From: Candidatus Woesearchaeota archaeon
GTDB lineage: Archaea; Nanobdellota; Nanobdellia; Pacearchaeales; GW2011-AR1
Reading direction: 5' to 3'
DNA length: 64,000 nt
Assembly (NCBI GenBank): GCA_964467035.1
Contig: CAYXNX010000004.1
Coordinates: 89 to 64,088, forward strand
The notes below the pieces were generated by a model. It made no database searches, was not told where the DNA came from, and saw only the letters and a program-made list of their open reading frames with translations. Position numbers and translations under genes: made by a program. Shown piece by piece: positions 5,857 through 51,594 of this stretch; the first letter of the stretch is position 1, and each line of letters starts with the position of its first letter.

Positions 5857-5992
5857 GATTAAAATGTAAAAAAGGATTTAATAGAAAATTGGGGAAAAAT
5901 CCAAGCAATACATTCGAAAGCAAATCTTTTTTACATGGAAAAATAATTTGGACTTCCATAAATAGAACAACATTCTGAGTAATATTTCGTAT

Positions 5993-6136: not shown

Positions 6137-6142
6137 TTTAAG

Positions 6143-6376
6143 TTACGAGCCAGCTTTTTGTTTCCTTATTAAAGAATGTATTCCCCAACCTATGATAAAA
6201 CCTATACTTCCGAATAATACGAATAAAAATATTATTGGTAAAAAATCTGTATTGAATTTAGAAAAATCTATGTGTGTATTAGGTAGCCACAACAATGAAG
6301 ATATTCCAATTAATGCTCCAAACCAACTCCCCCACATTTTGAATGGATTGTATAATTTTTTTATTTTATCTGTCAT
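6143..6376 (-). CDS. small membrane protein (cassette cargo)
   Basis: 77 aa with two hydrophobic helices. Flanked by the perfect 11-bp inverted repeat ttacgagccag (6143-6153) / ctggctcgtaa (6425-6435). Confidence 0.45.
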   Translation of the reverse strand: MTDKIKKLYNPFKMWGSWFGALIGISSLLWLPNTHIDFSKFNTDFLPIIFLFVLFGSIGFIIGWGIHSLIRKQKAGS

Positions 6377-6424
6377 ATTATTTTATTGAATTAAATTAAT
6401 ATAAATAACTTTTTATCTTAAAAA

Positions 6425-6590
6425 CTGGCTCGTAATTTCACTTAACGTTCGCGTGTATGAGAAGTTTGCGAAGTAAATTTGGGAAAATTGCGAGCCGAGG
6501 CATTTTTTCTTTTATCCCTTGTTATATGAGGGTGAGCTTGCGAAAGCGCGTAGCGTCTCAGAGGATTTTTTTGTAGAAAAAACCGCAGAG
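6425..6590 (+). repeat. G+C-rich junction element E2 (degenerate core CTTGTTAT at 6518-6525)
   Basis: GNRA-like hairpins (ttgcgaagtaa, cttgcgaaagcg). The right part (gggtgag..gcgtagcg) resembles 33971-34010. Confidence 0.5.
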
Positions 6591-19000: not shown

Positions 19001-22000
19001 AAACAATTCAGAATTTAATATAACTGATCCTGATGGAAATTTAATTTATAATTCTTTTAATAGTGCTGGAGAAGTTATTTTACAGCTTGATAATTTAACT
19101 CGTGAAGGGACCTATGATATAAGATTATATGCAGATGATTATTCAGGTAATAAGAATGAATCGCAGGATACTTTTGAAGTTACAGACTCTATGTCTCCTT
19201 CTCTTTCAATTTTTAAGAACCAATCAGAAGTTGAATATAACGAAGAGTCTATATATATTAACTGGACTTCTACAGACCTTAATCTAGATACAACTGAATT
19301 TAATGTGACTTATCCTAATGGAACTCTTATTTATGAAAGCACTTCAGAAACAGGAGAAATAAATTTAACTCCAGGGGATATTACAGAACTAGGAGATTAT
19401 GAAATTAATTTATGGGCAAATGATACCGCGGGTAATGAAAATTCAATTAGTGAAATTTTTGAGGTGGTAGATTTAGGATCTCCTGAAGTAAATATTCATT
19501 CTCCAGAAAATAAAACTTATGGTATTGAGGAATTGTTAGTTAATATTACTGCTAATGATGAACATGGGATTGACCAAATTTGGTATAATTGGAATGGAAC
19601 AAATGTAACTTATACAAATCCAACTAACGTAACATTTAATCAAGGATTGAACACTCTAAAAGCATGGACAAATGACACTTCGGGAAATATAGCTAAGGAT
19701 AATGTTACATTTACTATAGATACAGTTCCTCTTAATATAAGTATATTAAACCCTGGAAATAATTCTAAATTCAACTATTCTAATATCATTTTCAATGTTT
19801 CTTCAAACAAGGAAATGGAATGGTGTGGAATATCCATTGATGATGGAGATAATATTACAATGGAATTAAATAATTCGGGGACAGGAGCAAATTATTCAGA
19901 TACTTTCGAGGATAGAGAGCATTACTTTGAAGTAAGTTGTAATGATAGTGTTGGGAACACAGACACCTCTGGGAAATATTTCTTCTTAGTTGATACAATA
20001 AATCCTAATCTTTCAATTTTTAAGAATGAAACAGAAGTTGAATATAACGAAGAGTCTATATATATTAACTGGACTTCTACAGACCTTAATCTAGATACAA
20101 CTGAATTTAATGTGACTTATCCTAATGGAAGTGTAGTTTATTCCTCAGGTAATAGTGATGGGGAATTCGGTTTATCTCCTGCAAATCTAACTTCGGTGGG
20201 ATATTATAATGTTAGCTTGTGGGCCAATGACACAACAGGCAATGAAAATTCAATCAACGATAGCTTTGAAGTTTTTGCAGAAGTTGAACTGAATATATCA
20301 AAAACAAGCAATCTTGAAACAATTGATCCTACTGGAGGAGAGTTTAATTATATAATAAATATCTCAAATATTGGTTATGGGGATGCAAAAAATATAACTT
20401 TAGTTGAAAACTATCCTGAAAATGTAACATTTATTAATTCTACCCCTACGCCTGATTCAGGAAACAATACTTGGAATTTTAGTGTTGTGGAAGAAGGAGA
20501 AAATAAAATCATAGATATAATAGTGGATGCAAATTATGGTATTGAAAATGGAACTGAATTAGTAAACATAGTGAACCTTACCTATCTTGGAAGAGATAAA
20601 ACTGAAAAAAATATTAGTGCTATAGAAATAACAAAAATTATTGATGAAAATCTCCCAAGTGCTTTATTAATATCTCCTTCAAATGCTTCCATATTTAATG
20701 AGTCTAATGTTGAATTCATTTGCTCAGGAATGGATAGTGAATCTGTGCAAAAGATAAAGTTGTATGGTAGTTGGGGAAGCGGATGGGAAGTTAAATCTGA
20801 AGAAGAAGTTAATGGAACCTCTACTTCTGCAACATTTAATGAGGATGTTTTAGATGAGGGGAAATATATTTGGAGTTGCGAGGTTATAGATATTGGCGGA
20901 AATAAAGTTATGGCTTCTCAAAATAGAACATTTACAGTAGATGAAACTCCTCCAACAGTAGATTTAATAGACCCTGTAGGAAATAAAACAGTAGGTGATA
21001 AAAATATAGAGCTTACCTATAATGTTAGTGATAATCTTTCGAATGTTGAATCGTGTGAATTGTTTATTGATAATTCTTCTGTTAAATCAAGCAACAATAT
21101 AAATGAAAATTCTGAAAATAATTTCAATGTAAGTTTAAATAACAGGGTATACGAATGGAAAGTATCTTGTATAGATGAAACAGATAATGAAGGATTTTCT
21201 GATACTGAGACATTTAATGTAGAACTTTTGTTAGATGTTACCTTGAACACCCCAAAAAATAATTCTTATCTTAATGATAGTAATGTAGAATTGAATTGTT
21301 CTGCAGAGTCAGGATATCAACTAAGTAATATGACTATTTTTCTGAAAAATGGGACATGGACTAATAAAACATTTAATGTTTCAGGATATACCAACACTTC
21401 AATCTGGGAGGTAGAAAACCTTTCAGAAGGAGAATCTGAATGGTATTGTTCTGCAAGCAATATTGAAGGAAATGAGTCTACCTCTATTAACAAAAATACC
21501 TTTTATGTTGATTTGACAAATCCTTATATTGAGTTAATTGAACCTGGAAATAATAGTATAAAGAATGAAGAAGAAACCACTTTTAAGTATAATGTGACTG
21601 ATAATATATCCCTTATACCAAGATGTGATTTTTATTTGGATGGAGCAAAAAACGAGAGCTTTTTCAATGTAAGTAAGAATACAGTCCAGGAGTTTGGTAA
21701 GGAGGTATCTGAGGGTAGGCATAACTGGAGTATAAATTGTAATGATACTTCAGGCAGGTTAGGTTCTTCTCCTGTATTTTATTTCAATTATACTGGTGCT
21801 AGGTATACTGTTAATATAACCAATCCTTACACAGATATATATGAATCGCATTTCCATCTCCCTCCAACCGAATCCTGGTTTAGTAATTATACAGAAGCAT
21901 ATTTTAACAAAACCTATGATGTTAATGCTACAATAGATGTATTCAAATCAATATATGGTTGTTCCGCAAGTCTTATTATTAAACCAGACAATTTAACATA

Positions 22001-24692: not shown

Positions 24693-24734
24693 AAATAATA
24701 AATTTATAAATAATGATAAATAAGAATAAATAAG

Positions 24735-27700
24735 ATGCCAAGGGTAAAAAAAGGGGAATACAATAGAATAAAAAAGAAACTACTTTTAAATATATTTACT
24801 TTGATGTTTTTTATTATTATTTTATCAGGTCTTGTTTTAGCTGGAGGGAATAAGGCTGTTTGGACTTATGTAAACAAACCAAATGGAGACCCTGCTGAAG
24901 GAGCTAATGCAACCTACCGTGTTTTTTTAGAAGGCGATACAGGAGGATTCCCCGAATCTGAACAGTGTTACTGTGTTTCTTATCCAGGTGAAACTGCTTC
25001 TGATGGAAGTATGGTGGATGATCTAAGAAATTTAAAATATGAATCAACTTGTGCTTTTGGAGGAAGAGAAAAAGGAGATAGCTGTGGCTTACATTGGTCA
25101 GAAGGAGATCCAATATGGATTTTAGCAGATGGAAGTACAATGGATCCCCCGTTAGGAACAGGCAATGTTTCAGATACAATAGATGCATTTGGAACACAAA
25201 AGCTAGACAACATAACTCTTAGCTCAGGGCCAAATAATCCTCCGAATATTGACAGTGTTTCTCCTGGTTCGGGAAATTGGTATAATGAGTCTTCTTCCCA
25301 AGGTATTTCAGTAGAGGTTAATACTAATGAAGATTCAACATGTAGATGGAGTAAAAGCCCTATGGACTATTCATCAAAACCATATGATTTTACAGGAACA
25401 CAGTTAACTCATAATTATATCCTGGATTTGTGGCAAGAAAATGCAAATAATATTTACATAACTTGTCAGGATTCAGAAGGAGCTAATAGTGATGAGTATC
25501 ATTTAATACTGAACAAGGATACTACTTCTCCTGTTACTGATGATGATTATTCTTATAATGGGGGTTGGTATAATCAAAATGCAATTATTAATTTGAATGA
25601 GCAAGATTCTGGCTCAGGTGTAGATACTACCTATTATTGCATTGATGACTCAGATACATGTTCTCCTTCTCAAATATATAGTGATTCAGTTAATATCTCT
25701 GATGAGGGAACGAGTTACTTAAGATATTATTCAATAGACAATGTTGGAAATATCCAGGAAACCCAGTCTGTTGAAGTAAAAATAGAAAAAAATGCTCCGA
25801 TTACAGAAACAAACTTTACTAATAATAATACATGGGTGAATACAACCCAGTATGTCTGGCTGAACTATACTGATTCTGGCAATGTTTCAGGAAAAGATTG
25901 GACAAAGTATTGCACAGATGCTGGTTGTGATCCTTCAAGTGGAACAGATTATACAAGCCAGGTAGAATTTTCATCTGATCAAGAAACTAGCTTCAGGTAT
26001 GCAAGTAAAGATAATGCAGGAAATATTGAGACAACAAACGAATTAATTATAAAAATAGATAAAACACCTCCTACTACATCAGACGATTACACTCATGATG
26101 GAAGTTGGTATAACGACAATGCAGATATAACTCTTAATGAAAATTGTGATATTTCAGGATGTGAGTGGACAAAATACTGCACAGGAGAAGAATGTAATCC
26201 AAACACTGATTATACAGGAGAAACTATTGACTTTTCTGAAAATGGAACTCTAAGATATTATTCAAAAGATAATGCAGGCAATATCCAAGATGTTAGAGAG
26301 ACAACCATACTTATAGATAAAAAAGCTCCAGATATAAATGACGATTATGCCTATGATGATTTTTGGATAAATCATTCAACAGGAACAATAACATTAACCC
26401 CGAGTGATGCCGGAGGAAGTGGGTTAGAAAATGATCCTGATGCTGTTAAAATATGTGGGGGAGATGGGTGTGACCCTGAATCAACAAGTGGAATAAATTC
26501 TCCTTATGAATTAGATTATAGTTCTGAACAAGAAACTGTTTATAGATATCAATCATATGATAAAGCAGGAAGTGGCTCAGAAATAGGGAATTTTACAGTA
26601 AAAATAGATAAAACACCTCCAAATACCTATGATGATTATGCCTATAATGATACTTGGAATAATAAAAATGCTTCAATAAATTTAATTGAATCAGACCTTC
26701 CAGATCCTGCAAATTCAGGAATAAATATTACTTATTATTGTACTACAGATAATCTCAATGATTCCTGTGTTCTTGAAACAAAATATATAGGAGAAAAAAT
26801 AAATTTTTTTGAAAGCGGAGTTCTTAGGTACTATTCAAAAGATAATGCAGGCAATACTCAGAATGCTAAAGAAGCAATCATTAAAATTGATAAACAGAAT
26901 ATCTCAATTGCAAATGCCTCTGTTTTAATAGAAAATGGTTCAACTTATTCTACAGAAACAACTCTCCATTTTGATTATTTTGGATTTGAAGATCAAGCGC
27001 AACTTTCAGGAATAGATGGTTATTATTATAATTTTTCAAACAATGAAGGAACAACTTCAGGAAGCTGGGATACAGACCAAAATGGAGTTCTATCCGGAGC
27101 TAGCCAAGGGAATGTGAGTGTTTATGTATGGGGTAAGGATAAAGCAGGGAATATAGGTCCTGCAGTAAGTGATTCTATTATAGTAGATTCTGTCAATCCG
27201 GTTTTTTCTAATTGGAATAATTCTCAAATAAAAATGTCTGATTCAGGACCAATGAATATCAATGTAACTATAACAGATGAAACTTCTGGGGTAAAAGGAA
27301 TGCCTTCTATAAGATATAAATATGGAGAAGATAGTTGGTCTGAATGGAAAAATATAAGTTTGGTTTCCGGACAAAACTACACTTATGATATACCTGACCC
27401 AAATGGATGGTATGATTATTACAATGAAAACGTTTCTTGGCAGGTTAGAGCTAGAGATAATGCAGGAAATGAAGTAGATTCATCTATACATACTTTTCTT
27501 ATAGGCAGTGATGAACCAGCACCCATTGTAATACAAAAGAAACTAGAGTTTTTGAATGAAACAAAAGATTTTGTAAGATATAAAATAACAGATAAGGTAC
27601 ATAATACATTAAACAATACAGATATGTCTGATGTCCAGTTTGGAGATGGAGATATAATTCAGAATATAACACCGCCTGAAGACACATTTGACATAATTAA

Positions 27701-29000
27701 AGGAGAAGTTAAGATAAAAGAGAATAATGTTAAAATAGAGAAAGATTCTAAAAATAAAAACCATACATTTGAAACTGCTTATGCAGAATGGAATGGACAC
27801 ACATACAGATCTGTTATCCATGAAGTCGTTATCCCGGGTTATGGTGGTCCTTTTGATATAGGTGTAGATACTCCTCCTTCAGTCAAGCCTTCTGATGATG
27901 TAAGGGGAGACATAAACCTCATTAATATGAATCTAGATATTGGTAAAGATGTGGAAGTTAATTATTGGATAACTGATACAGAAAATAATGTAATAAACGG
28001 GTTAGAAGGGCAGAAAATGGTTTTTGCGGGGTCATTAGAAAATACATCTACTTTTGGGAAATTGAACTCTCCGTCTATTGAAGGAAATTATAGATTTTGG
28101 GCAGCAGTTACCTGGGCAGATGGGCATAATGCTAGTGCTTTTGATAGTTTTAAGGTAGAATCTGGAGGAGATGAAGGGGGTGGAGGCGGAGGTAGTGCAG
28201 GAGGAATTATAGGGAGTGTGGTGGAAGAACCGGAAAAAGAAACAGAAAAGAAAAAATACTTTGAGTTTGATATAAGTTTACCTCTTAAGAGAATAGAAAG
28301 AAATGAAATATTGTCGATATTAACAGGAATAGAAAATTTAGAACATAATACTTCTAGAGAAGTATCTATTGATTATACTATTGTAGATGAAAATAACAAT
28401 AGTATAATTAATGAAGGGGAAACAAAAACAGTAAATATTTCGAAATGTTTTTCTAAAAATATTTTGATTACCAATCAAACAGAAATAGGAGAATATACTG
28501 TTATAGCAGAATTGAATTATGGAGATTTTTCAACAATTTCAAGGGCAACTTTTGAAATAGTACCTGAAAAGACAAAAAATGTCATTAAAGAAAGTAAAAA
28601 TGTATCCTGTTGTCTTTGGTGTATAATAAGTGTCATATTGCTTTTGATAATAATCATTTATTATTTGTGGAGAATAAACAGGAATAACAACCAGATGGAT
28701 GATTCAGAAATTAAAGAGATTTTAAAAGAATCCATATCTGAAGTAAAATCTAAAATAGATCAAATCAAACCAAATAAACAAATATTAGAGAGGATGTTAT
28801 TAATAGAAAAAGAGGGTAAAAACAGAAAAAATATGAAGAAGACTTTAAAGAAATATATGCAAGAATCCATTTATACAAAACATAATAAAAAAATAGAGAT
28901 CATTTGTTTAATAGCTATAATTGCATTTATAATTTTAGGTTTTATATTATTCTGTTTAAGACCTGAAACATTATGTATTGGAGAAATTATATGGAATTAA
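24735..29000 (+). CDS. large surface protein with repeated Ig-like modules of about 95 aa and C-terminal TM helices
   Basis: N-terminal anchor LLLNIFTLMFFIIILSGLVLAGG. At least 5 modules DDY..(D/N)G.WYN...(Y/K)YC...LRYYS(K/I)DNAGN. A Gly-rich linker and two C-terminal hydrophobic helices. Confidence 0.65.
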   Translation: MPRVKKGEYNRIKKKLLLNIFTLMFFIIILSGLVLAGGNKAVWTYVNKPNGDPAEGANATYRVFLEGDTGGFPESEQCYCVSYPGETASDGSMVDDLRNLKYESTCAFGGREKGDSCGLHWSEGDPIWILADGSTMDPPLGTGNVSDTIDAFGTQKLDNITLSSGPNNPPNIDSVSPGSGNWYNESSSQGISVEVNTNEDSTCRWSKSPMDYSSKPYDFTGTQLTHNYILDLWQENANNIYITCQDSEGANSDEYHLILNKDTTSPVTDDDYSYNGGWYNQNAIINLNEQDSGSGVDTTYYCIDDSDTCSPSQIYSDSVNISDEGTSYLRYYSIDNVGNIQETQSVEVKIEKNAPITETNFTNNNTWVNTTQYVWLNYTDSGNVSGKDWTKYCTDAGCDPSSGTDYTSQVEFSSDQETSFRYASKDNAGNIETTNELIIKIDKTPPTTSDDYTHDGSWYNDNADITLNENCDISGCEWTKYCTGEECNPNTDYTGETIDFSENGTLRYYSKDNAGNIQDVRETTILIDKKAPDINDDYAYDDFWINHSTGTITLTPSDAGGSGLENDPDAVKICGGDGCDPESTSGINSPYELDYSSEQETVYRYQSYDKAGSGSEIGNFTVKIDKTPPNTYDDYAYNDTWNNKNASINLIESDLPDPANSGINITYYCTTDNLNDSCVLETKYIGEKINFFESGVLRYYSKDNAGNTQNAKEAIIKIDKQNISIANASVLIENGSTYSTETTLHFDYFGFEDQAQLSGIDGYYYNFSNNEGTTSGSWDTDQNGVLSGASQGNVSVYVWGKDKAGNIGPAVSDSIIVDSVNPVFSNWNNSQIKMSDSGPMNINVTITDETSGVKGMPSIRYKYGEDSWSEWKNISLVSGQNYTYDIPDPNGWYDYYNENVSWQVRARDNAGNEVDSSIHTFLIGSDEPAPIVIQKKLEFLNETKDFVRYKITDKVHNTLNNTDMSDVQFGDGDIIQNITPPEDTFDIIKGEVKIKENNVKIEKDSKNKNHTFETAYAEWNGHTYRSVIHEVVIPGYGGPFDIGVDTPPSVKPSDDVRGDINLINMNLDIGKDVEVNYWITDTENNVINGLEGQKMVFAGSLENTSTFGKLNSPSIEGNYRFWAAVTWADGHNASAFDSFKVESGGDEGGGGGGSAGGIIGSVVEEPEKETEKKKYFEFDISLPLKRIERNEILSILTGIENLEHNTSREVSIDYTIVDENNNSIINEGETKTVNISKCFSKNILITNQTEIGEYTVIAELNYGDFSTISRATFEIVPEKTKNVIKESKNVSCCLWCIISVILLLIIIIYYLWRINRNNNQMDDSEIKEILKESISEVKSKIDQIKPNKQILERMLLIEKEGKNRKNMKKTLKKYMQESIYTKHNKKIEIICLIAIIAFIILGFILFCLRPETLCIGEIIWN

Positions 29001-29443: not shown

Positions 29444-29469
29444 GTGCACAGAAAATTGATTTTATTATA

Positions 29470-29540
29470 TTAAGCCCTGTTAAATCCGCCGACGAACGAA
29501 GTGAGGAGAATGACATACTCCCTGGCCTAAAGGCAGGGGT
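29470..29540 (+). repeat. junction element E4 (core CTGTTAA at 29477-29483, RM-1-like cgacgaacgaagtgaggaga, bulged hairpin 29518-29539)
   Basis: aagccCTGTTAAATCC is shared with 33626-33641. The RM-1 motif is shared with 34978-34997. Confidence 0.6.
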
Positions 29541-30170
29541 ATCTCTTTAAGAAGTTACAAAGTTGTTTGTCTTAAATCTTTAAATTCAAAATTCCATTCT
29601 TCTTGGGAATACTTAATGTATTGTTCAATTACTTCAGCAGTTACTGCTCCAACACTTCGGAAAAATTTTCCAGGGCTCCATAAATGAGGTTTAACTGTTC
29701 CGTCTCTACTAAAAAAAGCATACCATTGAGTACACTTTTTGAAAAAAATTCTCGCGCTTCCTCCTTTCAAAAATTGTAAAGTCATACTCACCGAAATTGT
29801 CGACGGAACTTGTGCAAAACAATGCACATGGTCTGGCATAACTTTTAACTCAATAATTTCTATTTTATGTTTTTTTGCAACTTGTTTGATTGCATCTTCA
29901 CAAATTTTCCGAGGGTATTCTTTTTTGAAAACCGATACATTGTATTTTGGTCTCCAAACAAAGTGATAAGCACTTTGTCCTATTGCGTGTTTTGTATGTT
30001 TTAATTCCATTTTTCTCCATAGCTTTCGCGCACGAAAGCAAACATTTATTTAGTTTGAGAAAGTTTCAACTAGGCAATTTTATGGCGGTTTAACCGCCTT
30101 CTTTCTCGTAATAAATAAGTTTTTTAGAAATAAATACATTTGCACCTCGTCTTAAAAGACGAGGCAGCAG
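29500..30170 (-). mobile_element. IS200-like element (tnpA only); ends approximate
   Basis: Y1 transposase ORF flanked by subterminal hairpins: 29518-29539 downstream, and 30022-30039, 30084-30098 and 30145-30164 upstream. No tnpB/iscB. Confidence 0.5.
29555..30010 (-). CDS. tnpA: IS200/IS605-family Y1 (HUH) transposase TnpA
   Basis: 151 aa. YHFVWRPKY start, HUH motif PDHVHCF, LKGGSARIF, LWSPGKFFRSVG and the catalytic-Tyr region VIEQYIKYS. Confidence 0.85.
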   Translation of the reverse strand: MELKHTKHAIGQSAYHFVWRPKYNVSVFKKEYPRKICEDAIKQVAKKHKIEIIELKVMPDHVHCFAQVPSTISVSMTLQFLKGGSARIFFKKCTQWYAFFSRDGTVKPHLWSPGKFFRSVGAVTAEVIEQYIKYSQEEWNFEFKDLRQTTL

Positions 30171-30241
30171 ATATATTGTAGCGCAGCGGAGTGCGGAGTG
30201 AAACGGAGCAAGTTTTTCCTTTGGCGTTTTGAATACAAAAT

Positions 30242-30249
30242 TTTAAATA
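30242..30249 (+). promoter_or_regulatory. TATA-box-like element about 30 nt upstream of ATG 30272 (leaderless layout)
   Basis: tttaaata. The same spacing is seen at four other cassette genes. Confidence 0.4.
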
Positions 30250-30271
30250 TAACTTAGAATTCTTTAATACC

Positions 30272-30487
30272 ATGGCATTATTAACAGAAACTTCTGCAAA
30301 ATTATTGGAGGAAATGTGCGAAGATAGAACGGGAAAATCATTACAAGAATTTTCAGAACAAGATTTTCCAAGAGATTACTCTCCCGAATTAGAACAGAAA
30401 AGAGCAGAAGTTTCAAAATACAGATTAACCAAACCATCTACAACGCCATGGTATAATCCTCAAAGAATTCTAAGACATTTTAGATAG
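30272..30487 (+). CDS. hypothetical small protein
   Basis: 71-aa ORF with a TATA at -30. Terminates in TAG. No recognisable family. Confidence 0.4.
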   Translation: MALLTETSAKLLEEMCEDRTGKSLQEFSEQDFPRDYSPELEQKRAEVSKYRLTKPSTTPWYNPQRILRHFR

Positions 30488-30514
30488 TTTATAGCCAAAT
30501 GAAAAATTTCGTTG

Positions 30515-30660
30515 AACATCGCGATTAAACGAAGTCGCCTAAGGCGATTTGGGTGGAGAAACCTGCAAGGTTTCGGAACCGTTAAATTCCTGTTAGTTTC
30601 GTCCGAATATTTAGAGGACTTGATTTTTAGTGCAACGATGCCGAAGGCAAAAAATCAAAG
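30515..30660 (+). repeat. junction element E5 (AACATCG left module, core CTGTTAG at 30590-30596, RM-2 right module with hairpin 30620-30660)
   Basis: The left part parallels E1 and 33533-33630. The hairpin is repeated in inverse orientation at 56190-56229. Confidence 0.7.
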
Positions 30661-30796
30661 TTTTTGGATTACTGATAAATTTCGACCGCAGAGAGTATAT
30701 ATGTCCAAAGGAAGAGAGAGTAGGGTGTCTTGTTTTGGTTCTTTTCTAAAAGAACATTTAGGGTCGTCATTTGTCATTTTCTGGGCTACCAAAAGA

Positions 30797-30804
30797 TTTA
30801 TATA
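30797..30804 (+). promoter_or_regulatory. TATA-box-like element about 30 nt upstream of ATG 30829
   Basis: tttatata. Overlaps the left inverted-repeat arm at 30788-30800. Confidence 0.4.
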
Positions 30805-30828
30805 GTAATTGTATTATTGATTATACAT

Positions 30829-31419
30829 ATGTATAAAAAGATAAGATTTACAGAAAATACCTTGCAAGTATTATCTTTATTTACGAACGATTTTAATAGA
30901 GAATATTATATTCGAGAAGTTGAAAAATTACTAAAAATTAGTCCGAGAACATCACAGCTTATTCTTGAGGATTTGGAAAATAAAGGAGTGATAGAATCAA
31001 AAACTAAGGGCAAGATTAAAACATTTAAATTAAATCCAAGCGAGTTCACTAAAAGGTATCTTGCTTTCGTAGAACAATATAAAGCGATTGCATTTTTAGA
31101 AAAGAAACTTTTGATTAAAGAAATAATAGAAAAGATCATTCCCAATATTAAAGGAATCGGCATAATTTTTGGAAGTTATGTTAAAGGATTAGAAAAAGAA
31201 GGTTCTGATTTGGATATTTTTATTGTAGGAAGTTATAACAATGACGAAATAAAAAAAATTTCAAAAAATTTAGGTATAGAGATAAGTATTAAATGTTATC
31301 CTCTGAAAACATTTGAGAAGAATCTAAAAAAAGATATCCTTCTGAAAGAAGTTTTAAAAAATCATGTAGTTTTTCTAAATGTAGAACAATTTATACAGAA
31401 GGTCTTCAAAAATGGATAA
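30829..31419 (+). CDS. nucleotidyltransferase (MNT-like) with N-terminal winged helix
   Basis: GSYVKGLEKEGSDLDIFIVGS matches the minimal nucleotidyltransferase signature. N-terminal wHTH-like segment. Overlaps the HEPN gene by 8 nt. Confidence 0.75.
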   Translation: MYKKIRFTENTLQVLSLFTNDFNREYYIREVEKLLKISPRTSQLILEDLENKGVIESKTKGKIKTFKLNPSEFTKRYLAFVEQYKAIAFLEKKLLIKEIIEKIIPNIKGIGIIFGSYVKGLEKEGSDLDIFIVGSYNNDEIKKISKNLGIEISIKCYPLKTFEKNLKKDILLKEVLKNHVVFLNVEQFIQKVFKNG

Positions 31420-31894
31420 AATAAAATGGTGTGCTGAGAAAAAAGGAGGATTAAGTTTAGTTGAGCCAAACTCTGATCTCGCAAATGCTTATATCAAGAA
31501 AGCGGAAGAAGCACTTGAATCAATGAGGGTAAACATAATTAAAGATTGGAAAATCTCAACAGCATACTATACAATCTATTTCTCATTATACGCTGTCTTG
31601 ATGAAATTGGGTATAAAATGTAAGATTCATTCTTGTACTATTGAATTTGCAAAAAGATTCCTCGAAGAATATTTTGAAGAAGCAGAGTTAAATTTTACTG
31701 AGGACTCATTAAAAGCTAGAGTCGATTCCCAATATTATATAGACCGAACTGTTCCAGATGAGCAATATAACAAAATGATTCAAAAAGCTCCTGAATTTCT
31801 AGTTAAGTGCAAATCTGTTATTATCAAATTAAACGAGAAAAAGGTTAATGAGATAAGAGATAAATTTCAAAAGGAAATAAGCAAGAGGAGATAA
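31412..31894 (+). CDS. HEPN-domain protein (partner of the MNT)
   Basis: 160 aa, helical. N-terminal AYIKKAEEALESMR is typical of HEPN. Translationally coupled to the upstream nucleotidyltransferase. Confidence 0.7.
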   Translation: MDKIKWCAEKKGGLSLVEPNSDLANAYIKKAEEALESMRVNIIKDWKISTAYYTIYFSLYAVLMKLGIKCKIHSCTIEFAKRFLEEYFEEAELNFTEDSLKARVDSQYYIDRTVPDEQYNKMIQKAPEFLVKCKSVIIKLNEKKVNEIRDKFQKEISKRR

Positions 31895-31956
31895 TTAAAT
31901 GAATACTAAACAGATAATTAACAAGAAAGCTGAATATTGGAAAAAGTGATTACCAG

Positions 31957-32141
31957 TAAATCTTTTGGTTTCAAATTATATTTCTATTTAGCCCGAATTC
32001 TGAATTAGACATAATTCCTGTTATGTCTCCCGACGACTGAAAGGAGGAGAGCGCAGCGTGGCAAAATCCGAAGGATTTTGAGTTCAGAATTCGGGCGTAT
32101 TTGATATTAACTTCAGAGTAGTAAAAGAACCGAAAGATTTA
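31957..32141 (+). repeat. junction element E6: nested-stem structure with core CTGTTAT at 32018-32024
   Basis: Stems 31957-31970/32128-32141 (13 of 14), 31991-32004/32083-32096 (14/14), 32007-32014/32021-32028 (8/8) and 32062-32069/32073-32080 (8/8). Confidence 0.8.
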
Positions 32142-32145
32142 TAAA
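32138..32145 (+). promoter_or_regulatory. TATA-box-like element 30 nt upstream of ATG 32168
   Basis: tttataaa. Overlaps the inverted-repeat arm at 32128-32141. Confidence 0.4.
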
Positions 32146-32167
32146 GATTAGACTTATTCTAAAATAC

Positions 32168-32461
32168 ATGAAAAAAGAAATAATCCCAAGGTATAATATT
32201 GAAGTTCCAACACTAGAGGAACAGCTAAAAGAAGAAGGATTCAAAAGAGTAGCTGAACTTGAAGCAAGAGCTGATGGAAGAGTGGAACTTCCAATTGATT
32301 TAGTCCCAAATACAAAGGGCGGAAAAAATATTTTTGGTAAACCTTACGCGGAATTGAGAATTGTAAATGCGAGAGAAGTTAGCCCATTTGAAAAGAGCGA
32401 TAGAAAATATTTTGTTTACCAAAAAATAGAAGAAAGCCCATATGTATTTGAACAAGAATAA
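32168..32461 (+). CDS. hypothetical protein (cassette cargo)
   Basis: 97-aa ORF with a TATA at -30. Bracketed by perfect inverted repeats. Confidence 0.5.
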   Translation: MKKEIIPRYNIEVPTLEEQLKEEGFKRVAELEARADGRVELPIDLVPNTKGGKNIFGKPYAELRIVNAREVSPFEKSDRKYFVYQKIEESPYVFEQE

Positions 32462-32600
32462 ATCTTTCGGTTTCTATCTTTTAGCCCGAATTCTGATTAG
32501 ACATAATCGCTGTTATACGCCCCGACGAGTGAAACGAGGAGAGCCTGCAAGGCGTGGTCGGAGCGAAGCGACGAAGAAGTGGTGTGAGTTTTCGTTAAAT
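32459..32600 (+). repeat. junction element E7 (core CTGTTAT at 32510-32516)
   Basis: The left part gcccgaattctga-ttagacataat equals the E6 left part. Positions 32539-32570 are identical over 32 nt to 33666-33697. Confidence 0.75.
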
Positions 32601-32603
32601 GAT

Positions 32604-33062
32604 TTAGAGTAGCCTTCGTTTTATTTTTATTAATAAAAAAGTTAATACTATATAAAAAAATCCGATGCAAATTATATAGTAATTTGGAAATGTTTTAAAA
32701 AAAAGAAAAAATCCAAAAGCGTAAGCTATTCCTAAAAAGATTCCTGAAGATGTCCTTAAAATATTATTGCCTTTGGATTTTTTAAAAGCAGATATTGACC
32801 AATCAATTAAAGCAAATATGGGGAAAAAAGCAATTACAAAATAATATAAATTTTTATTTGGTATTTGAAAAGTTAATAACACTATTCCTAAGAGAATTCC
32901 TAAATATACTCCAAGACAACGAGAACAAAAAGCAATTTGTTTATTTTTAATTTTAAATAAATAGCATTTATAATAATCTTCTTTTTTATGATGAGAAAGA
33001 ATATACTTAGAGACTTCACTTAATCCCCTTTTTAATTCTTTTAGTAAATAATTTAGTCCCAT
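32604..33062 (-). CDS. DUF2085-like membrane protein
   Basis: 152 aa with CSRCLGVYLG followed by 4 hydrophobic helices. Confidence 0.5.
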   Translation of the reverse strand: MGLNYLLKELKRGLSEVSKYILSHHKKEDYYKCYLFKIKNKQIAFCSRCLGVYLGILLGIVLLTFQIPNKNLYYFVIAFFPIFALIDWSISAFKKSKGNNILRTSSGIFLGIAYAFGFFLFFKTFPNYYIICIGFFYIVLTFLLIKIKRRLL

Positions 33063-33093
33063 ATTATTAACTAAATATAAGTAGAATAAAAAT

Positions 33094-33432
33094 TTATCCG
33101 TATTTTGCTTTAAATGCAGAATCGGTCATTGTTAAATAAATTATTCCTTCAATTAAACCAATTATTGCAGGAATGAAAGTCCAAAAAAAACACAAATACA
33201 AAATTCCCATTCCAATATCTTCTAAATAAAATTTGTGTGCACCGATTCCGCCAAGTAAAATTCCTAAAAGGCCTGCGGCAACTTTGTTTTTTTCCCTTCC
33301 AGAAAATGAATGATGACTTCTTTGTCTAACGCCACATTTTGGGCATATTTCTGCTTCTTTTTTTATAACTTCTCCACAAGAAGAGCAATAAGCTTCATCG
33401 GATTTTTTTTCTTTCTTGTCTTTTTGAACCAT
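33094..33432 (-). CDS. zinc-ribbon plus TM2-domain membrane protein
   Basis: CSSCG..x..CPKCG zinc ribbon, then AGLLGILLGGIGAHKFYL, which is typical of the TM2 domain. Confidence 0.7.
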   Translation of the reverse strand: MVQKDKKEKKSDEAYCSSCGEVIKKEAEICPKCGVRQRSHHSFSGREKNKVAAGLLGILLGGIGAHKFYLEDIGMGILYLCFFWTFIPAIIGLIEGIIYLTMTDSAFKAKYG

Positions 33433-33532
33433 ATTTATATTTAAAGAAATATAGAACTTTATAAACTTTTTTATTTTTTAAGGGGGCTACTCTTCTAACG
33501 AAGATGTCTAGAAAATTCACACTATTGCAATT

Positions 33533-33720
33533 AACATCGCGATTAAGGAAAGTTAATTTCTCCCGCGAGTGTAACGAGCTGGCTGAGAAATTAATTTAGG
33601 AAAATCCTGCAAGGATTTTCTGTTTAAGCCCTGTTAAATCCTCTGAACAAAATCTTTGATTTTGTGAGAGCCTGCAAGGCGTGGTCGGAGCGAAGCGGAG
33701 GGCGTAAGTCCCAATCTCCA
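33533..33720 (+). repeat. junction element E8 (AACATCG left module, core CTGTTAA at 33631-33637)
   Basis: Hairpins 33553-33562/33585-33594 (10 bp) and 33599-33620 (gaaaatcc-tgcaa-ggattttc). Shares a 32-nt block with E7. Confidence 0.7.
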
Positions 33721-33832
33721 TTATATTCTCAAACTTCCAAAAAATAGAATCTTTGATTCGTCATTTTTTGAGGATGTTTGGCGAGCATCTTTTCGATGCG
33801 AAGAGTCGCGAAATGAAATGGAGCGATTGGAT

Positions 33833-33960
33833 ATAAGGGGTGTTAATCGACCCCAAATACTTGGAGAGGCACGAGTTCTTCAGATATTTGTTGGAAGTGA
33901 GTTTTGCGTTGGGCGGGGTCTTGATAATAGAAGGGTTGTGGGGAGCAAAATTTTGATTAA
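33833..33960 (+). repeat. L repeat copy 1 (noncoding element of about 125 nt)
   Basis: About 90% identical by eye to 34840-34964 and 36134-36259. Indels between copies break any reading frame. Confidence 0.9.
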
Positions 33961-34015
33961 CCCCTGTTATACAGGGGGTGAGGAGCGTAGCGACGAAAGC
34001 GTAGCGTTCCATTGC
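33961..34015 (+). repeat. junction element E9 (core CTGTTAT at 33964-33970 inside the hairpin cccctgt-tat-acagggg)
   Basis: Followed by gtgaggagcgtagcgacgaaagcgtagcg, a gcgtagcg..cgaaag..gcgtagcg hairpin-like tract. Confidence 0.6.
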
Positions 34016-34031
34016 GTCAAGAAATTGGGCA

Positions 34032-34775
34032 TTACTTCTTCTTAAACTTGAACAAAATAAAAGTTGGCAAAGTTGTTGTTAATCTATATTTTTCAGAATC
34101 ATATTTTTTAGATATTTTAGTTGGCTCAGCATCTTTATAATCGATTAATTCAAATCCATTATTTATTCCTGCTTTAATCAGTGTTTCATAGGTAAAATTA
34201 CAAAGTTCCACTTTTCCTAAACTTCCTAAATCATTTGGTTTTGGGGTTTCATCAAAATAATTGCCAAAAATTATTCTTTTTCTATAAGATTGTTTTTTTA
34301 CACCAATCATGTGTTCCTTAGTTTGATTGATTAGATTAAAAATTGGGTGGCCTGTTGAAAAACAAAAAATCCCTTTTTTCTTTAAAACACGATTTACTTC
34401 TTTGAATAATTTGTTAATGTCTTTGATGTAATGTATTGCTAAACTTGAATAAACAATATCAAAAGTTGAATCTTCATGTTTTAACTTTTTACTCATATCT
34501 CCAACATAGAAATTAGAATCAGGAATTTTTTGTTGATTTGCAAATTTGACTAATTCTTTACTAATGTCAAATCCAACCAATTTTTTATAATTTTGCTTAG
34601 ATAATTTTTGAGCATGATCCCCAAAACCACAACCCATATCTAGAATAACTTTGTTTTTTACATCACCAATGATTTTAATTAAAGCAGGAACTTCAATATC
34701 TCGATTATAATCAAATCGCGTTTTATCTTTTCTTCGCTCTAAATAATGCTGAGCCAATTTATCATATTCTGCCAT
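34032..34775 (-). CDS. class I SAM-dependent methyltransferase
   Basis: VILDMGCGFGDH (motif I), DIVYSSLAIHY and KKGIFCFS motifs. Confidence 0.85.
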   Translation of the reverse strand: MAEYDKLAQHYLERRKDKTRFDYNRDIEVPALIKIIGDVKNKVILDMGCGFGDHAQKLSKQNYKKLVGFDISKELVKFANQQKIPDSNFYVGDMSKKLKHEDSTFDIVYSSLAIHYIKDINKLFKEVNRVLKKKGIFCFSTGHPIFNLINQTKEHMIGVKKQSYRKRIIFGNYFDETPKPNDLGSLGKVELCNFTYETLIKAGINNGFELIDYKDAEPTKISKKYDSEKYRLTTTLPTFILFKFKKK

Positions 34776-34839
34776 ATATATAGACTACTTTGCCAACAAT
34801 ATAAATCTTTTTGTTCTGAGCCCAATTTCTTGATTTCGT

Positions 34840-34964
34840 ATAAGGGTGTTAATCGACCCCAAATACTTGGAGAGGCACGAGTTTTTCAGATATTTGTTTG
34901 AGTGAGTTTTGCATTGGGGGTGTCTTGACAATAGAAGGGTTGTGGGAAGCAAAATTTTGATTAA
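34840..34964 (+). repeat. L repeat copy 2
   Basis: See copy 1. Immediately followed by tcgCTGTTAT (core at 34968-34974). Confidence 0.9.
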
Positions 34965-35042
34965 TCGCTGTTATCTGTCCCGAACGAAGTGAGGAGAGTG
35001 CAACGTGCCCGAGCCGAAGGCGAAAGAGTTTTTGAAAATGCC
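34965..35042 (+). repeat. junction element E10 (core plus RM-1-like cgaacgaagtgaggagag; gagccgaaggc hairpin)
   Basis: Read directly. Ends in the inverted-repeat arm at 35029-35042. Confidence 0.6.
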
Positions 35043-35105
35043 GTTCATCAAGGACGAAGTCCCATTAGTTTAAAGAATCAAGGTGTAAACTCAAGAAGCA
35101 CAATG

Positions 35106-35113
35106 TTTATAAT
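35106..35113 (+). promoter_or_regulatory. TATA-box-like element 30 nt upstream of ATG 35136
   Basis: tttataat. Confidence 0.4.
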
Positions 35114-35135
35114 AATTCATAATTTCCACTAATTT

Positions 35136-35801
35136 ATGGCTTCAAATTTAGAGAATCTTCATCAGTGGGCATCTTCAAAATATGAGAATTATCTATCTAT
35201 GATAGCTATTGGTTCAATTGCGGTGGGAGATGCTTGGATTGAGGGAAGAAGCGATCATGACATTCTTCTTGTTTTTGAAGAATATCCTCAAAGCATTGCT
35301 TCAGATTTAGAAGGATATCTTCAAAATTCTGAATTTGATGAAACTTACCTATTCACACCATTACCAAAATCTGTGTTAATAGGCCCAAAAAATCATAGTC
35401 ATGATTTCTCAAACAAATTCAGAAGTAAGACTCTCTATGGAATTGATTTAATCCCTGAAGTTAAATTACCAACAGATGAAGTGATTAAATCATTGTATGA
35501 AAGTGGTTTAGAGAGTGTTACGAGAAGAATGTCGCATAGAATTGCCCACGCTTCTTTATGGACTGATGAAAAAGCCAGAAATGTTTTTTGGAAATTATTC
35601 AAGCATTCATTTATGAATTTAGCAATAAGAGCTTATGCAACATCTGGAAATTATCCAAGAAAAAGGGAAGATGTTGTAAAACATTATGATTCTGATGAAT
35701 TAAAAGTCGTATTAGAAACATTGAATACAATTAATGAACAACCAAGAGAAAATATTGTTTCTGCTGCGAAAGGATTGGTTGGCTATATTAAGCGACTTTG
35801 A
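35136..35801 (+). CDS. putative nucleotidyltransferase-fold protein
   Basis: GSIAVGDAWIEGRSDHDILLVF matches the G-S-x(9-11)-D-x-D nucleotidyltransferase pattern. The rest is helical. Confidence 0.5.
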   Translation: MASNLENLHQWASSKYENYLSMIAIGSIAVGDAWIEGRSDHDILLVFEEYPQSIASDLEGYLQNSEFDETYLFTPLPKSVLIGPKNHSHDFSNKFRSKTLYGIDLIPEVKLPTDEVIKSLYESGLESVTRRMSHRIAHASLWTDEKARNVFWKLFKHSFMNLAIRAYATSGNYPRKREDVVKHYDSDELKVVLETLNTINEQPRENIVSAAKGLVGYIKRL

Positions 35802-35821
35802 GTTTACCTCATTCTATTTTA

Positions 35822-35915
35822 GGCATTTTCAAAAATTGGATTTAATGCCTGTTATAATCTCCCGTTAGTGACGAGGGATAGCTGCAAGCGGTTTTTTGCG
35901 AAGCAAAAAAATCCT
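35822..35915 (+). repeat. junction element E11 (core CTGTTAT at 35849-35855)
   Basis: Hairpins gctgcaagc and ttttttgcgaagcaaaaaa. Begins with the inverted-repeat arm at 35822-35835. Confidence 0.6.
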
Positions 35916-35935
35916 GAAGAGTTGAATTTAGAAAC

Positions 35936-36082
35936 TTACTTCTTTTTTAATGAGAAGAAAGCGAAGAATGCAAAAAATCCGAAGAATCCGAAAAGCTCGT
36001 AATTTTGAGTAGGTATGCCTAGCAATCCTAATAATCCAAAGATACCAAAATATCCAGCTTTCCATTTATTATCATCTTTCAT
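35936..36082 (-). CDS. small hydrophobic protein (48 aa; below the ORF-track cutoff)
   Basis: My translation is MKDDNKWKAGYFGIFGLLGLLGIPTQNYELFGFFGFFAFFAFFSLKKK. Bracketed by the perfect 14-bp inverted repeat 35922-35935/36114-36127. Confidence 0.4.
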   Translation of the reverse strand: MKDDNKWKAGYFGIFGLLGLLGIPTQNYELFGFFGFFAFFAFFSLKKK

Positions 36083-36133
36083 AATATTTCTGAGGTTCTA
36101 TTTGTTTATTAAAGTTTCTAAATTCAATTGATT

Positions 36134-36259
36134 ATAAGGGGTGTTAATCGACTTCGAATACTTGGAGAGGCACGAGTTCTTCAGATATTTGTTTGAGTGA
36201 GTTTTGCATTGGGGGTGTCTTGACAATAGAGGGGTTGTGGGGAGCAAAATTTTGATTAA
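36134..36259 (+). repeat. L repeat copy 3 (adjacent to the recombinase gene; not followed by CTGTTA)
   Basis: Ends gattaaCAG, so TTAACAG (the reverse complement of CTGTTAA) sits at 36256-36262. Confidence 0.9.
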
Positions 36260-36304
36260 CAGACTTTTAACGAACTCAGTTAATATTTGATAGTTAAAAG
36301 TCTG
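36260..36304. repeat. perfect 12-bp inverted repeat cagacttttaac-N21-gttaaaagtctg upstream of the recombinase gene
   Basis: Arms at 36260-36271 and 36293-36304, read directly. Confidence 0.85.
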
Positions 36305-36367
36305 AAAGAAGCAAAATTAGGTTCAGGGTCTAGAAAAAATTACTATTGTTGAATTGTAAAATATATT

Positions 36368-36377: not shown

Positions 36378-36394
36378 TAGTGTTTAGTGTTATA

Positions 36395-37234
36395 ATGGTT
36401 TATATTCCTTATGACTGGGAAACTTGTTTAAGGAGAAAATGTAAAAGATATAGGTATTCTGACAAAAATGTGAAAAATTATAGTTACTGGATTCAAAGAT
36501 TTTTGAAATGGAATGGGAAGGAATTGAAGTATATTTCAAAAAAAGATGTTAGTGCTTTTTTGCAAAAATTAGATAATCAAAATCTTTCAGGAAATACCTT
36601 AAATCAATGTCATATGACGCTTAAATTCTTATTTGAAGATGTTATGGATAAAAAGATGTAGATAAATATTAAGTATGCAAAAGTGCCTAAAAGAATTCAA
36701 AAAGTTTTGAAAAAAGAAGAAATAAAATTATTAATTAAAAACATTAAAAATTCTAAACACAAAATTATGATTGCTTTGATGTACTCAGCAGGTTTAAGAG
36801 TAAGTGAGTTAATTAATTTAAAAGTTGAAGATTTAGAATTAAAAAATAGATATGGATTTGTGAGAAATGGAAAGGAAGGAAAAGATAGATTATTTATTAT
36901 TTCTGAAAGACTGGCACCTGTTTTAAAACAAATTATTTTAGATAATAATTTGGGAAAAGAAGATTATTTATTTTTAAGTAGAAGAAATAAAAAATATAGT
37001 GTAAGAACAATACAGAAAATTGTTAAGGATGCAAGTAAAAAAGCTGGTCTTGATTTTAAAGAAATTCACCCACATACATTAAGACATAGTTTTGCAACTC
37101 ATTTAATTGAACAAGGAGATTGTGTTGGAGATGTGCAAGCAATGTTAGGACATAAATCTCAGGAAACTTCTTTAAACTATATCCATTCATCAGGGAAAAT
37201 GTTAAATATAAAAAGTCCTTTTGACAGATTATAA
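36395..37234 (+). pseudogene. Xer-like tyrosine recombinase interrupted by one in-frame TAG (36659-36661)
   Basis: The N-terminal SAM-like domain (36395-36658) and the catalytic domain (36662-37234) are in the same frame. Catalytic signature: R in GLRVSEL, HPHTLRH, LGH and Y in LNYIH. No IntI-type insertion. Confidence 0.75.
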
Positions 37235-51099: not shown

Positions 51100-51358
51100 G
51101 TAGACCAGACCGGCGCGTTAGCTCTGCGCCATTTGCAAGTGAGCTCTAGGCAGGTCGCAAGGGGGTAAGTGATTCTTTTTACAAAGAGTCTTTGCCTGGA
51201 CTGTGATATTTTGTCCTATTTGACCTTGCTCCTGCAAACCGGGTCAGACCTTGATCGGAGCAGCCCTAAACAGGAAACAAGGTGCTTATAGGGTAGCAAA
51301 ATTGAGAAAGGGTAGAGGTAGCTTTTTGTGGAAAGGAGAGCAAACCCCTGTGGTCTAC
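51100..51358 (+). ncRNA. probable SRP (7S) RNA
   Basis: G+C-rich noncoding island. The 5' GUAGACCA pairs with the 3' UGGUCUAC. Alu-like hairpin 51112-51130 has loop AGCUC complementary to GAGCU at 51141-51145. GGGUCAGACC..GGAGCAGCC (51241-51265) resembles the helix-8 motif GGUCAGGUCCGGAAGGAAGCAGCC. A T-rich tract follows. Confidence 0.65.
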
Positions 51359-51573
51359 ACTGTAATGTTTCTTTTTGGGGTTTTCTCGTTTCGTCGTAAA
51401 CTCCGAAGGAGCAAACCCCTGTGGTCTACACTGTAATGTTTCTTTTTGAGGTTTTCTCGTTTCGTCGTAAACTCCGAAGGAGCAAACCCCTGTGGTCTAC
51501 ACTGTAATGTTTCTTTTTGAGGTTTTCTCGTTTCGTCGTAAACTCCGAAGGAGCAAACCCCTGTGGTCTACAT
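51338..51573 (+). repeat. 71-bp tandem repeat: three full units plus a partial fourth unit of about 23 nt
   Basis: Units start at 51338, 51409, 51480 and 51551. Each unit is the last 21 nt of the putative SRP RNA plus a T-rich tract and a spacer. There is one substitution between unit 1 and units 2-3. Confidence 0.9.
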
Positions 51574-51594
51574 TGTAAAAAGAACCTAAGGTTC

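Follow-up and report, generated by a model that had tools for sequence, protein, structure and literature searches.

What kind of element is the 185-nt palindrome between two small genes of an archaeal chromosome: a dedicated folded structure, or the seam between two movable pieces of DNA? The palindrome occupies positions 31957-32141 of a 64,000-nt stretch from a Candidatus Woesearchaeota archaeon (assembly GCA_964467035.1, contig CAYXNX010000004.1, positions 89 to 64,088 of the forward strand; hereafter the window), where it separates an MNT/HEPN gene pair from a small open reading frame (ORF), orf97. An initial annotation, made from the sequence letters, took it for an intact recombination site at a cassette junction. 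The proposal is upheld in part: site anatomy and array context support a recombination site at a cassette junction, and the intact, unrecombined state is conjectural. Two mobile gene cassettes probably meet here, within an integron-like array on the chromosome of a DPANN-type archaeon, and their joint is organized around a 28-bp core site of the Xer type (Table 1). The palindrome itself is real, but it is no dedicated four-stem structure.

The core site (32004-32031) reads ATTAGACATAA-TTCCTG-TTATGTCTCCC, that is, inverted arms in an 11 + 6 + 11 arrangement. The arms are complementary at 8/8 inner positions and at 8/11 over their full length, and the perfect form ACATAA-N6-TTATGT has its single occurrence in the window here. 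Compared with the dif site of Pyrococcus abyssi from in vitro work, ATTGGATATAA TCGGCC TTATATCTAAA (Cortez et al., 2010; PMC2958812), the arms are identical at 16/22 positions (left 9/11, right 7/11). The R'' and R' outer boxes of integron attC sites are also present, as AGACATAA(t)...GTTATGT at 32007-32026, with T instead of C as the base after ATAA, and the TG/TTA of the site corresponds to the integron crossover box G/TTRRRY (the slash marking the boundary). Across 113 copies, R' also occurs as GTTATAC, GTTAGAC, GTTAAAC, and GTTAGGC. The consensus of 75 distinct junctions is a left arm ending in TAA or TAT followed by YCCYTG/TTAYRYGY-CCC, with T at position 5 of the central region in 71 and G at position 6 in 73.

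The left arm closes a left module, CCCGAATTCTGA(N)TTAGACATAA, found in 44 species genomes, nearly all of them Woesearchaeota, Pacearchaeota, or Nanoarchaeota. What follows ATTAGACATAA in the 46 junctions of these genomes falls into three groups. Eleven junctions have the short form seen at the focal site, exactly 6 nt and then TTA. About 20 have a long form with attC-like layout, C-UCS-L''...VTS...L'-UCS-GTTA, in which the same two arms are set apart by a 60-130-nt L''-VTS-L' segment (UCS, unpaired central spacer; VTS, variable terminal structure). The remaining junctions are array ends, several of them about 100 nt from the ATG of a recombinase gene. The L''-VTS-L' segment is present in the window's long sites at 5988-6075, 30514-30600, and 33524-33646; the L''/L' pair and VTS are absent at the focal site and at 32507-32512, where 6 nt lie between the R boxes. 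By eye, L'' and L' are perfectly complementary in several long sites, and most long sites inspected in this way appear to have no extrahelical bases in the L box; an additional T stands in the L' of one family (the L086 type; L numbers designate related loci). A pair of inverted, double-strand dif-like sites is an equally valid reading of each long site, and the focal short form could as well be ancestral as derived through deletion of L''-VTS-L'.

The halves of these sites assort independently among genomes around the CTG/TTAT motif, and the initial placement of a crossover in or next to that motif was broadly right. At the TG/TTA edge, one left module meets many different right halves across the 46 junctions, while one right-hand family, TTAGTTTCGTC, stands after a long site in the window (30593) and after a short site in L124. 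At the ATAA/C edge, L015, L150, and L143 combine the R'' box AGACATAAC with L''/VTS/L'/R' from another family. As judged from these sequences, exchange of halves takes place at either edge of the central region.

The modules beside the core site belong to a cassette skeleton common to 22 DPANN cassettes (L123-L152, L037, L039, L066, L084, L086, L111, and window 32082-32496). The skeleton starts with R2 (TTCAGAATTCGGGC). R1 (ACCGAAAGATTT, then typically ATAAA; three variants by eye, in L143, L084, and L136) begins 44-48 nt, usually 46, past the R2 start. A cargo of 238-491 nt, measured from R1 start to L1 start, is followed by L1 (TAAATCTTTCGGT) and by L2 (GCCCGAATTCTGA), which starts 24-33 nt (most often 24) past the L1 start. 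A forward ORF stops exactly at the module TAA in 19 of the 22 cassettes, and its ATG lies 26-39 nt after R1 in 16/19 (mode 27, the value also found for orf97). The L1-type module, (N)TAAATCTTTCGGTTTC, comes after the stop codon of unrelated ORFs in the 22 cassettes, and comparison of the 19 ORF products gave one related pair only. For orf97, Pfam gave no match and there is no exact protein copy on record. The skeleton looks like a standard expression frame that receives genes. In archaeal promoters, a transcription factor B recognition element (BRE) and TATA box lie upstream of the start; by this architecture, CGAAAG-ATTTATAAAG is a candidate BRE/TATA box, from which transcription would start at or near the ATG; its distance to the ATG is constant in the 22 cassettes (mode 27 nt). 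The 3' end module, made up of stop codon, L1, and L2, and the 5' end module, made up of GA-rich module, R2, and R1, are mutual inverted repeats, and the cassette ends are likewise inverted repeats (TTATGTCT...AGACATAA). Because the cassettes share one skeleton, the long stems at the focal junction are the MNT/HEPN 3' module paired with the orf97 5' module.

This origin accounts for the palindrome, whose four stems all lie where the initial annotation drew them; the pairing of the two flanks is real. On reading of 31000-33500, the outer stem joins 31957-31970 to 32128-32141 with 13/14 pairs (T31966 opposite G32132) and the second, perfect stem joins 31991-32004 to 32083-32096 over 14 bp. Inside lie hairpin 1, AGACATAA-TTCCTG-TTATGTCT with arms 32007-32014 and 32021-32028, and hairpin 2 (Table 1). 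The minimum free energy (MFE) was compared with that of 200 dinucleotide shuffles. As single-stranded DNA (ssDNA), the plus strand of 31957-32141 has an MFE of -38.1 kcal/mol against -14.9 +/- 2.9 for the shuffles (z -8.0; 0/200 as good) and the minus strand one of -35.8 kcal/mol (z -7.9); as RNA, the plus strand reaches -64.6 kcal/mol (z -7.2). The predicted DNA and RNA structures are exactly the four stems. The initial annotation had proposed comparing this folding with that of the next junction, and there (32459-32643, plus-strand DNA) the MFE of -15.9 kcal/mol is no better than shuffles (z +0.26). The junction is no assembly artefact, since an independent contig (Logan SRR11308339, L155) gives an identical sequence from HEPN to the junction until it ends inside the repeat.

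The nested fold is nevertheless no conserved unit, because the left module (L1/L2 and ATTAGACATAA) stands without the complementary right module next to it in 45 of the 46 junctions; both modules are adjacent only at the focal one. Two further metagenome matches have cognate arms, one without the left module and the other with degenerate copies and a deleted xerA. As judged by this comparison, the full nested fold is incidental, arising where two cassettes of the same skeleton are adjacent via a short site. It would also be the expected closing joint of a circularised cassette from this family. On metagenome contig Ga0315295_10219348 (L238, ~700-1100), the same short site, its flanking modules degenerate, is joined to the terminal ~15 codons of xerA; dph5 comes next after the xerA remnant, making this a deletion variant that preserves the window's xerA-dph5 synteny.

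The next junction had been described as a broken site, with a foreign right half and a core hairpin split exactly after CTG/TTAT. Its core site, ATTAGACATAA-TCGCTG-TTATACGCCCC, instead belongs to the site family as an ordinary member. The cassette attached to it is of a different family, and the 5' end of that family is seen again in L037, L094, and L110. The exact split did not stand in full, as the loops already differ (TTCCTG vs TCGCTG). The right half is foreign in that it has no sequences pairing with the left half; it does, however, contain a variant of the conserved GA-rich module, CCCGACGA-GTGAAAC-GAGGAG..., with 67% identity over 49 nt. Exact-protein look-ups for orthologous loci returned the HEPN protein on a single 1.4-kb contig and nothing for orf97.

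The GA-rich module has the general form CCCGACGA-[CTGAAAG]-GAGGAG-A-[GCGCAGC]-GKGG-[variable hairpin]-AGTY and starts exactly 9 nt after GTT (113 copies). At least 119 archaeal and bacterial species genomes contain it, with many bacterial phyla represented; among 2.9 million viral contigs there was 1 match, and among PLSDB plasmids none. A 49-nt stretch of the module, AATTCCTGTTATGTCTCCCGACGACTGAAAGGAGGAGAGCGCAGCGTGG, has three occurrences in the window, and a covariance model of this stretch finds seven full window copies, all on the plus strand, six of them within 29.47-34.97 kb. Hairpin 2 is swapped in other copies, for example for CAC-GAA-GCGTAGC-GGA-GTG or TGC-GAA-GTGAAAC-GGA-GCA. The closing pair of the first mini-hairpin is CG in 98 of 106 copies (GC 3, AT 1, TG 1, CA 3; unbiased counts), and in the variant ACGAAGT the whole loop is replaced; the second mini-hairpin varies as GC..GC, GT..AC, AT..AT, or an extended GCC-TGCAA-GGC. 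GNA triloops and tandem G.A pairs are features of unusually stable DNA mini-hairpins of the d(GCGAAGC) type, and alternating C-G pairs along with tandem G.A pairs could arise between the module flanks. Since the module is the one strongly asymmetric element beside a near-palindromic site, its position suggests that it may set the polarity of that site, and it may act as an asymmetric single-strand DNA element. Coding explanations were rejected. A Shine-Dalgarno sequence with GTG start or a leader peptide in AAGGAGG...GTGG is contradicted by the many copies with GGGG, GAGG, or AGGG and by differing frames and stops; an opposite-strand reading frame is contradicted by codon positions that are all invariant from one domain to another and by the paired nature of such changes as occur.

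The array ends at a tyrosine recombinase gene. Among 156 related stretches, 23 contain a homologue, and in 20 of these the sites lie upstream and co-oriented, often 100-900 nt from its ATG; none of the 155 site-bearing stretches yielded an IntI with the specific insertion. Sequence, profile, and structure matches identify the enzyme as XerA-like, without the additional domain specific to IntI. The L011 homologue matches NF040815 (recomb_XerA_Arch) with 238 bits (cutoff 220), and the window's 183-aa C-terminal ORF has the same family as its best NCBIfam match with 159 bits, under the 220-bit whole-protein cutoff. The integron integrase profile TIGR02249 is matched only at 1-181 and 239-315 (212 bits; cutoff 265). 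The best solved structure is P. abyssi XerA, VchIntIA being matched in two separate stretches, and full-length alignments to IntI1 contain 42-66 gap positions at every locus. The catalytic R..K..HxxR..H..Y is conserved in the alignment.

From these elements a mechanism can be proposed. An Xer/IntI-family tyrosine recombinase would bind the two 11-bp arms, and strand exchange would take place at the borders of the central region, TG/TTA among them, leading to excision, insertion, or reshuffling of cassettes. The likeliest enzyme would be the array-end XerA-like recombinase without the IntI-specific domain. The focal site would then be a short, dif-like form used as a double strand, and the neighbouring sites attC-like forms with arms split by L''-VTS-L', perhaps used as single strands.

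Several observations weigh against this account, in which the link between recombinase and site is putative. The window's recombinase copy carries an in-frame TAG (36659-36661); a sequencing error, read-through, or decay to a pseudogene could each account for it. The ORFs on either side, 36380-36661 and 36683-37234, share one frame, and homology continues across the stop. The window's long-form sites fold weakly as ssDNA (z -1.6, -1.6, -3.2, and +0.8), so their attC-like reading is thermodynamically not compelling. The pairing evidence for the GA-rich module amounts to four base pairs, and because standard energy models give the module alone no significant folding (z -1.6 to 0), its mini-hairpins are hypothetical. 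L1/L2 and R1/R2 are conserved in sequence, and no covariation was found for long-stem pairing: C/T and G/A variants occur at a paired position of L1 and R1 but are unmatched within cassettes, with one testable junction for compensatory change. Because these changes are one-sided, there is no evidence of selection for cross-junction pairing of the long stems. Finally, the module model had no match in 80 loci collected from recombinase homologues, a reciprocal search that is uninformative because the loci were mostly ordinary bacterial Xer/IntI and the close relatives from the candidate phyla radiation (CPR) and DPANN lie 30-600 nt from a contig end.

Such a position close to a contig end, seen for the CPR homologues L156-L162, L165, L166, and L188, suggests upstream repeats. 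The upstream regions of the CPR homologues share motifs, for example CTCCTTTCTATACGAA and GTATATTATACGAAT, that may represent a recombinase-proximal site.

The array can be compared with several known systems. Nanoarchaeota metagenome-assembled genomes with attC clusters and zero IntI have been reported, and IntI1 recombines a Nanoarchaeota attC site with the R boxes ACATAAC/GTTATG (Ghaly et al., 2022; PMC9668308), an R box shared by the sites described here. The arrays probably belong to this class. None of the contigs used here was found by accession in the supplement of that study (PMC9668308), and the study makes no mention of an array-linked XerA-like gene. As in archaeal integrons and clusters of attC sites lacking integron-integrases (CALINs), small and mostly orphan ORFs, including the toxin-antitoxin-like MNT/HEPN, stand between imperfect palindromes. 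As in integron attC, the outer boxes resemble RYYYAAC/GTTRRRY with a conserved G/TT boundary, site halves reassort from genome to genome, and sites from different domains resemble one another. Unlike attC, the focal site has 6 nt and no L''-VTS-L' between its boxes, and most long sites appear, by eye, to lack extrahelical L-box bases. In contrast to integrons, the IntI-specific domain is missing from the adjacent recombinase, whose gene follows the array in the same orientation; cassettes seem to have promoters of their own; and a conserved GA-rich module follows R'. With archaeal XerA/dif (PMC2958812), the array shares the 28-bp format and the arm identity described above, a single XerA-type recombinase, and a core site flanked by inverted repeats. 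XerA/dif has one terminus site, whereas many tandem sites bound cassettes here; moreover, the focal site adjoins the recombinase gene, no skew switch is seen, and the site modules occur in many bacterial phyla.

The pdif modules of Acinetobacter (PMC6449649) also consist of genes, including toxin-antitoxin genes, between inversely oriented Xer-type sites. Like the focal site, pdif sites are double-strand sites with a 6-bp centre, and pdif modules are shuffled between replicons. They differ in being bacterial, served by two recombinases, and mainly plasmid-borne (some are chromosomal and dif-associated), whereas the present array is archaeal, has one recombinase, is chromosomal, and has no PLSDB match; pdif also lacks hairpin (long-form) sites, a GA-rich module, and a shared promoter/stop skeleton. 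In the attP(+) of CTX-phi, two inverted dif-like halves about 90 nt apart fold as ssDNA into an Xer substrate. The long-form sites could fold likewise, whereas folding is not required at the focal site; moreover, CTX-phi is the genome of a phage and not a cassette.

The likeness to published archaeal clusters permits another account, an unlikely one, in which the array is a canonical CALIN: its attC sites would be recombined only as folded bottom strands by a true IntI located elsewhere or acting in trans, the focal short form would be a dead remnant deprived of its L''-VTS-L', and the XerA-like gene would encode a housekeeping dimer resolvase. The neighbouring sites do show the R''-UCS-L''...L'-UCS-R' layout and GTTRRRY-like boxes, and IntI-less archaeal CALINs with attC functional with IntI1 are published (PMC9668308). 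Nonetheless, no insertion-bearing IntI occurs in the 155 site-bearing stretches, the short recombinase is linked and co-oriented in 20/23 cases, and the long sites fold weakly and mostly appear, by eye, to lack the extra L-box bases. Nor would random decay be expected to preserve the exact 6-nt spacing that the short forms have in 11 independent junctions. It is more doubtful still that the focal site is the chromosomal dif for dimer resolution, with the cassettes as integrants that exploit Xer, in the manner of integrative mobile elements exploiting Xer (IMEX), and the palindromic flanks as accessory or flanking repeats. The dif-like anatomy, the resemblance to P. abyssi dif, the flanking inverted repeats of Thermococcales dif sites (PMC2958812), and a chromosomal XerA-like recombinase adjoining dph5 and ileS all fit this view; at least eight sites in 7 kb and a second pair near 6 kb, in place of one site, do not. 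GC skew is positive throughout the window with no switch or inflection, many bacterial phyla have these modules too, and Thermococcales dif is not adjacent to xerA (PMC2958812).

A structured RNA, either a small RNA or an inter-cassette terminator or insulator, is very improbable. The RNA fold (z -7.2), the GC-rich island that the region forms in a genome of 30% GC, and some covariation in the mini-hairpins would favour it. However, scans of the window and both repeat regions with Rfam 15, which holds no attC family, gave no match at the site either at the gathering threshold or at E values up to 10, and the fold is as good on one strand as on the other. Compensatory changes are absent from the long stems, and other genomes do not preserve the nested arrangement. 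The outer stem's right arm also overlaps the promoter-like box that precedes the next gene, and GNA triloops with tandem G.A runs are generally known to fit DNA better than RNA. Least credible is a foldback element or one resembling a miniature inverted-repeat transposable element (MITE), or a hairpin element moved by the IS200-like Y1 transposase encoded nearby (29555-30010), despite the long terminal inverted repeats. The MITE or foldback form was rejected on the left-then-right order, which occurs in one of the 46 junctions, the order elsewhere being right module, ORF, left module. Derivation from IS200/IS605 was rejected too: the window's single Y1 gene belongs to an insertion sequence (IS) that is itself inserted in a GA-rich module, splitting it, and in the related loci inspected a gene for a Y1 transposase was not noticed.

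A wider proposal can be made tentatively, although it is rather doubtful. These arrays may be an Xer-driven "proto-integron" in which a XerA-type enzyme without the IntI insertion captures and shuffles promoter-bearing cassettes through sites of two forms, one double-strand and dif-like (the focal site), the other hairpin and attC-like. The universal GA-rich ssDNA module beside the right arm would give the polarity that extrahelical bases give in true integrons, and the system would be shared by DPANN, CPR, and other phyla. In that case, the promoter/stop-codon skeleton that unrelated ORFs have in common would record how cassettes are made. This touches two open questions, the origin of integrons from Xer-type recombinases and the making of gene cassettes. 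If true, a recombinase without the IntI domain beside dif-like and attC-like sites would be a testable natural intermediate, and the attC clusters reported without integrases in archaea would be explained. The roughly 50-nt GA-rich element is almost invariant from Woesearchaeota to Gammaproteobacteria.

Table 1. Features of the focal junction, its neighbours, and the array (window coordinates).
Feature	Coordinates	Strand	Description
L1, left arm of outer stem	31957-31971	+	TAAATCTTTTGGTTT; begins conserved 3' module of upstream MNT/HEPN cassette
L2, left arm of 14-bp stem	31990-32004	+	AGCCCGAATTCTGAA; includes 8-bp palindrome AGAATTCT
Left 11-bp arm, R''-type box	32004-32014	.	ATTAGACATAA; invariant end of left module
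Central region, 6 bp	32015-32020	.	TTCCTG; putative crossover region, G/TT boundary inside
Right 11-bp arm, R'-type box	32021-32031	.	TTATGTCTCCC; GTTRRRY-like together with G32020
GA-rich module	32029-32061	+	CCCGACGA-[CTGAAAG]-GAGGAG-A-[GCGCAGC]-GTGG; two putative mini-hairpins with GNA triloops, possible tandem G.A pairs
Hairpin 2, third and variable hairpin of GA-rich module	32062-32080	+	CAAAATCC-GAA-GGATTTTG; second 8-bp hairpin of the initial annotation
R2, right arm of 14-bp stem	32083-32096	+	TTCAGAATTCGGGC; in 5' module of orf97 cassette
R1, right arm of outer stem	32127-32146	+	GAACCGAAAGATTT; overlaps BRE/TATA-like box CGAAAG-ATTTATAAAG
orf97, cargo ORF of downstream cassette	32168-32461	+	TAA stop is the first three bases of next L1 module
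Next junction	32459-32557	+	L1 32459-32473, L2 32484-32496, core site 32496-32523, variant GA-rich module 32521-32557
Cassette array	29463-36310 (~7 kb)	+	at least 8 junction sites in one orientation, between small cassettes
XerA-like tyrosine recombinase gene	36380-37234	+	array end; tblastn, translation, NCBIfam

The array has the layout of a cassette array, with small genes between module copies and a tyrosine recombinase gene at its end. Its cargo comprises a 71-aa ORF with an IS200-like insertion, MNT and HEPN, orf97, DUF2085 and TM2, a 247-aa ORF, and a 221-aa ORF (Pfam, for some of the ORFs), and a covariance model of arm plus GA-rich module matches it at 29474, 32015, 32507, 33628, 33961, and 34965, all on the plus strand. 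The window is archaeal chromosome, encoding aCPSF1, an archaeal CCA enzyme, diphthine synthase (dph5), IleRS (ileS), and ArgRS, and related sequences come almost only from Woesearchaeota, Pacearchaeota, and Nanoarchaeota.

A second mini-array (5986-6560), 23 kb upstream of the main one, consists of a long attC-like site with GA-rich module (6062-6140), a small minus-strand membrane ORF, and a further site ending in GTTATATGA at ~6530. A 121-nt repeat is present in three copies (33838-33958, 34844-34964, and 36139-36259), two of them 95% identical and the third 64% identical to the reference copy; its ends resemble paired site halves (ATAAGGGGTGTTAATC ... GATTAAYC-CCT/GCT-GTTAT) and its ~100-nt middle does not fold (z +0.8). 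The IS200-like Y1 transposase element spans 29523-30174 (tnpA 29555-30010, minus strand) within one GA-rich module, the left part of which, GCCGACGA-ACGAAGT-GAGGAG, ends at ~29511, while AGCGCAGCGGAG-TGCGGAGTGAAACGGAGCA-AGTT resumes at 30175. Directly upstream of the array (10785-29000) lie two giant repeat-rich ORFs of 4635 aa and 1421 aa, which probably encode surface proteins. Farther along the window, in the region 51207-51578, a 71-nt unit is repeated ~3.4 times with 98-100% identity (51338-51578), directly 3' of a borderline match to a bacterial-type signal recognition particle RNA (51207-51305, 40.2 bits) in this otherwise archaeal genome.

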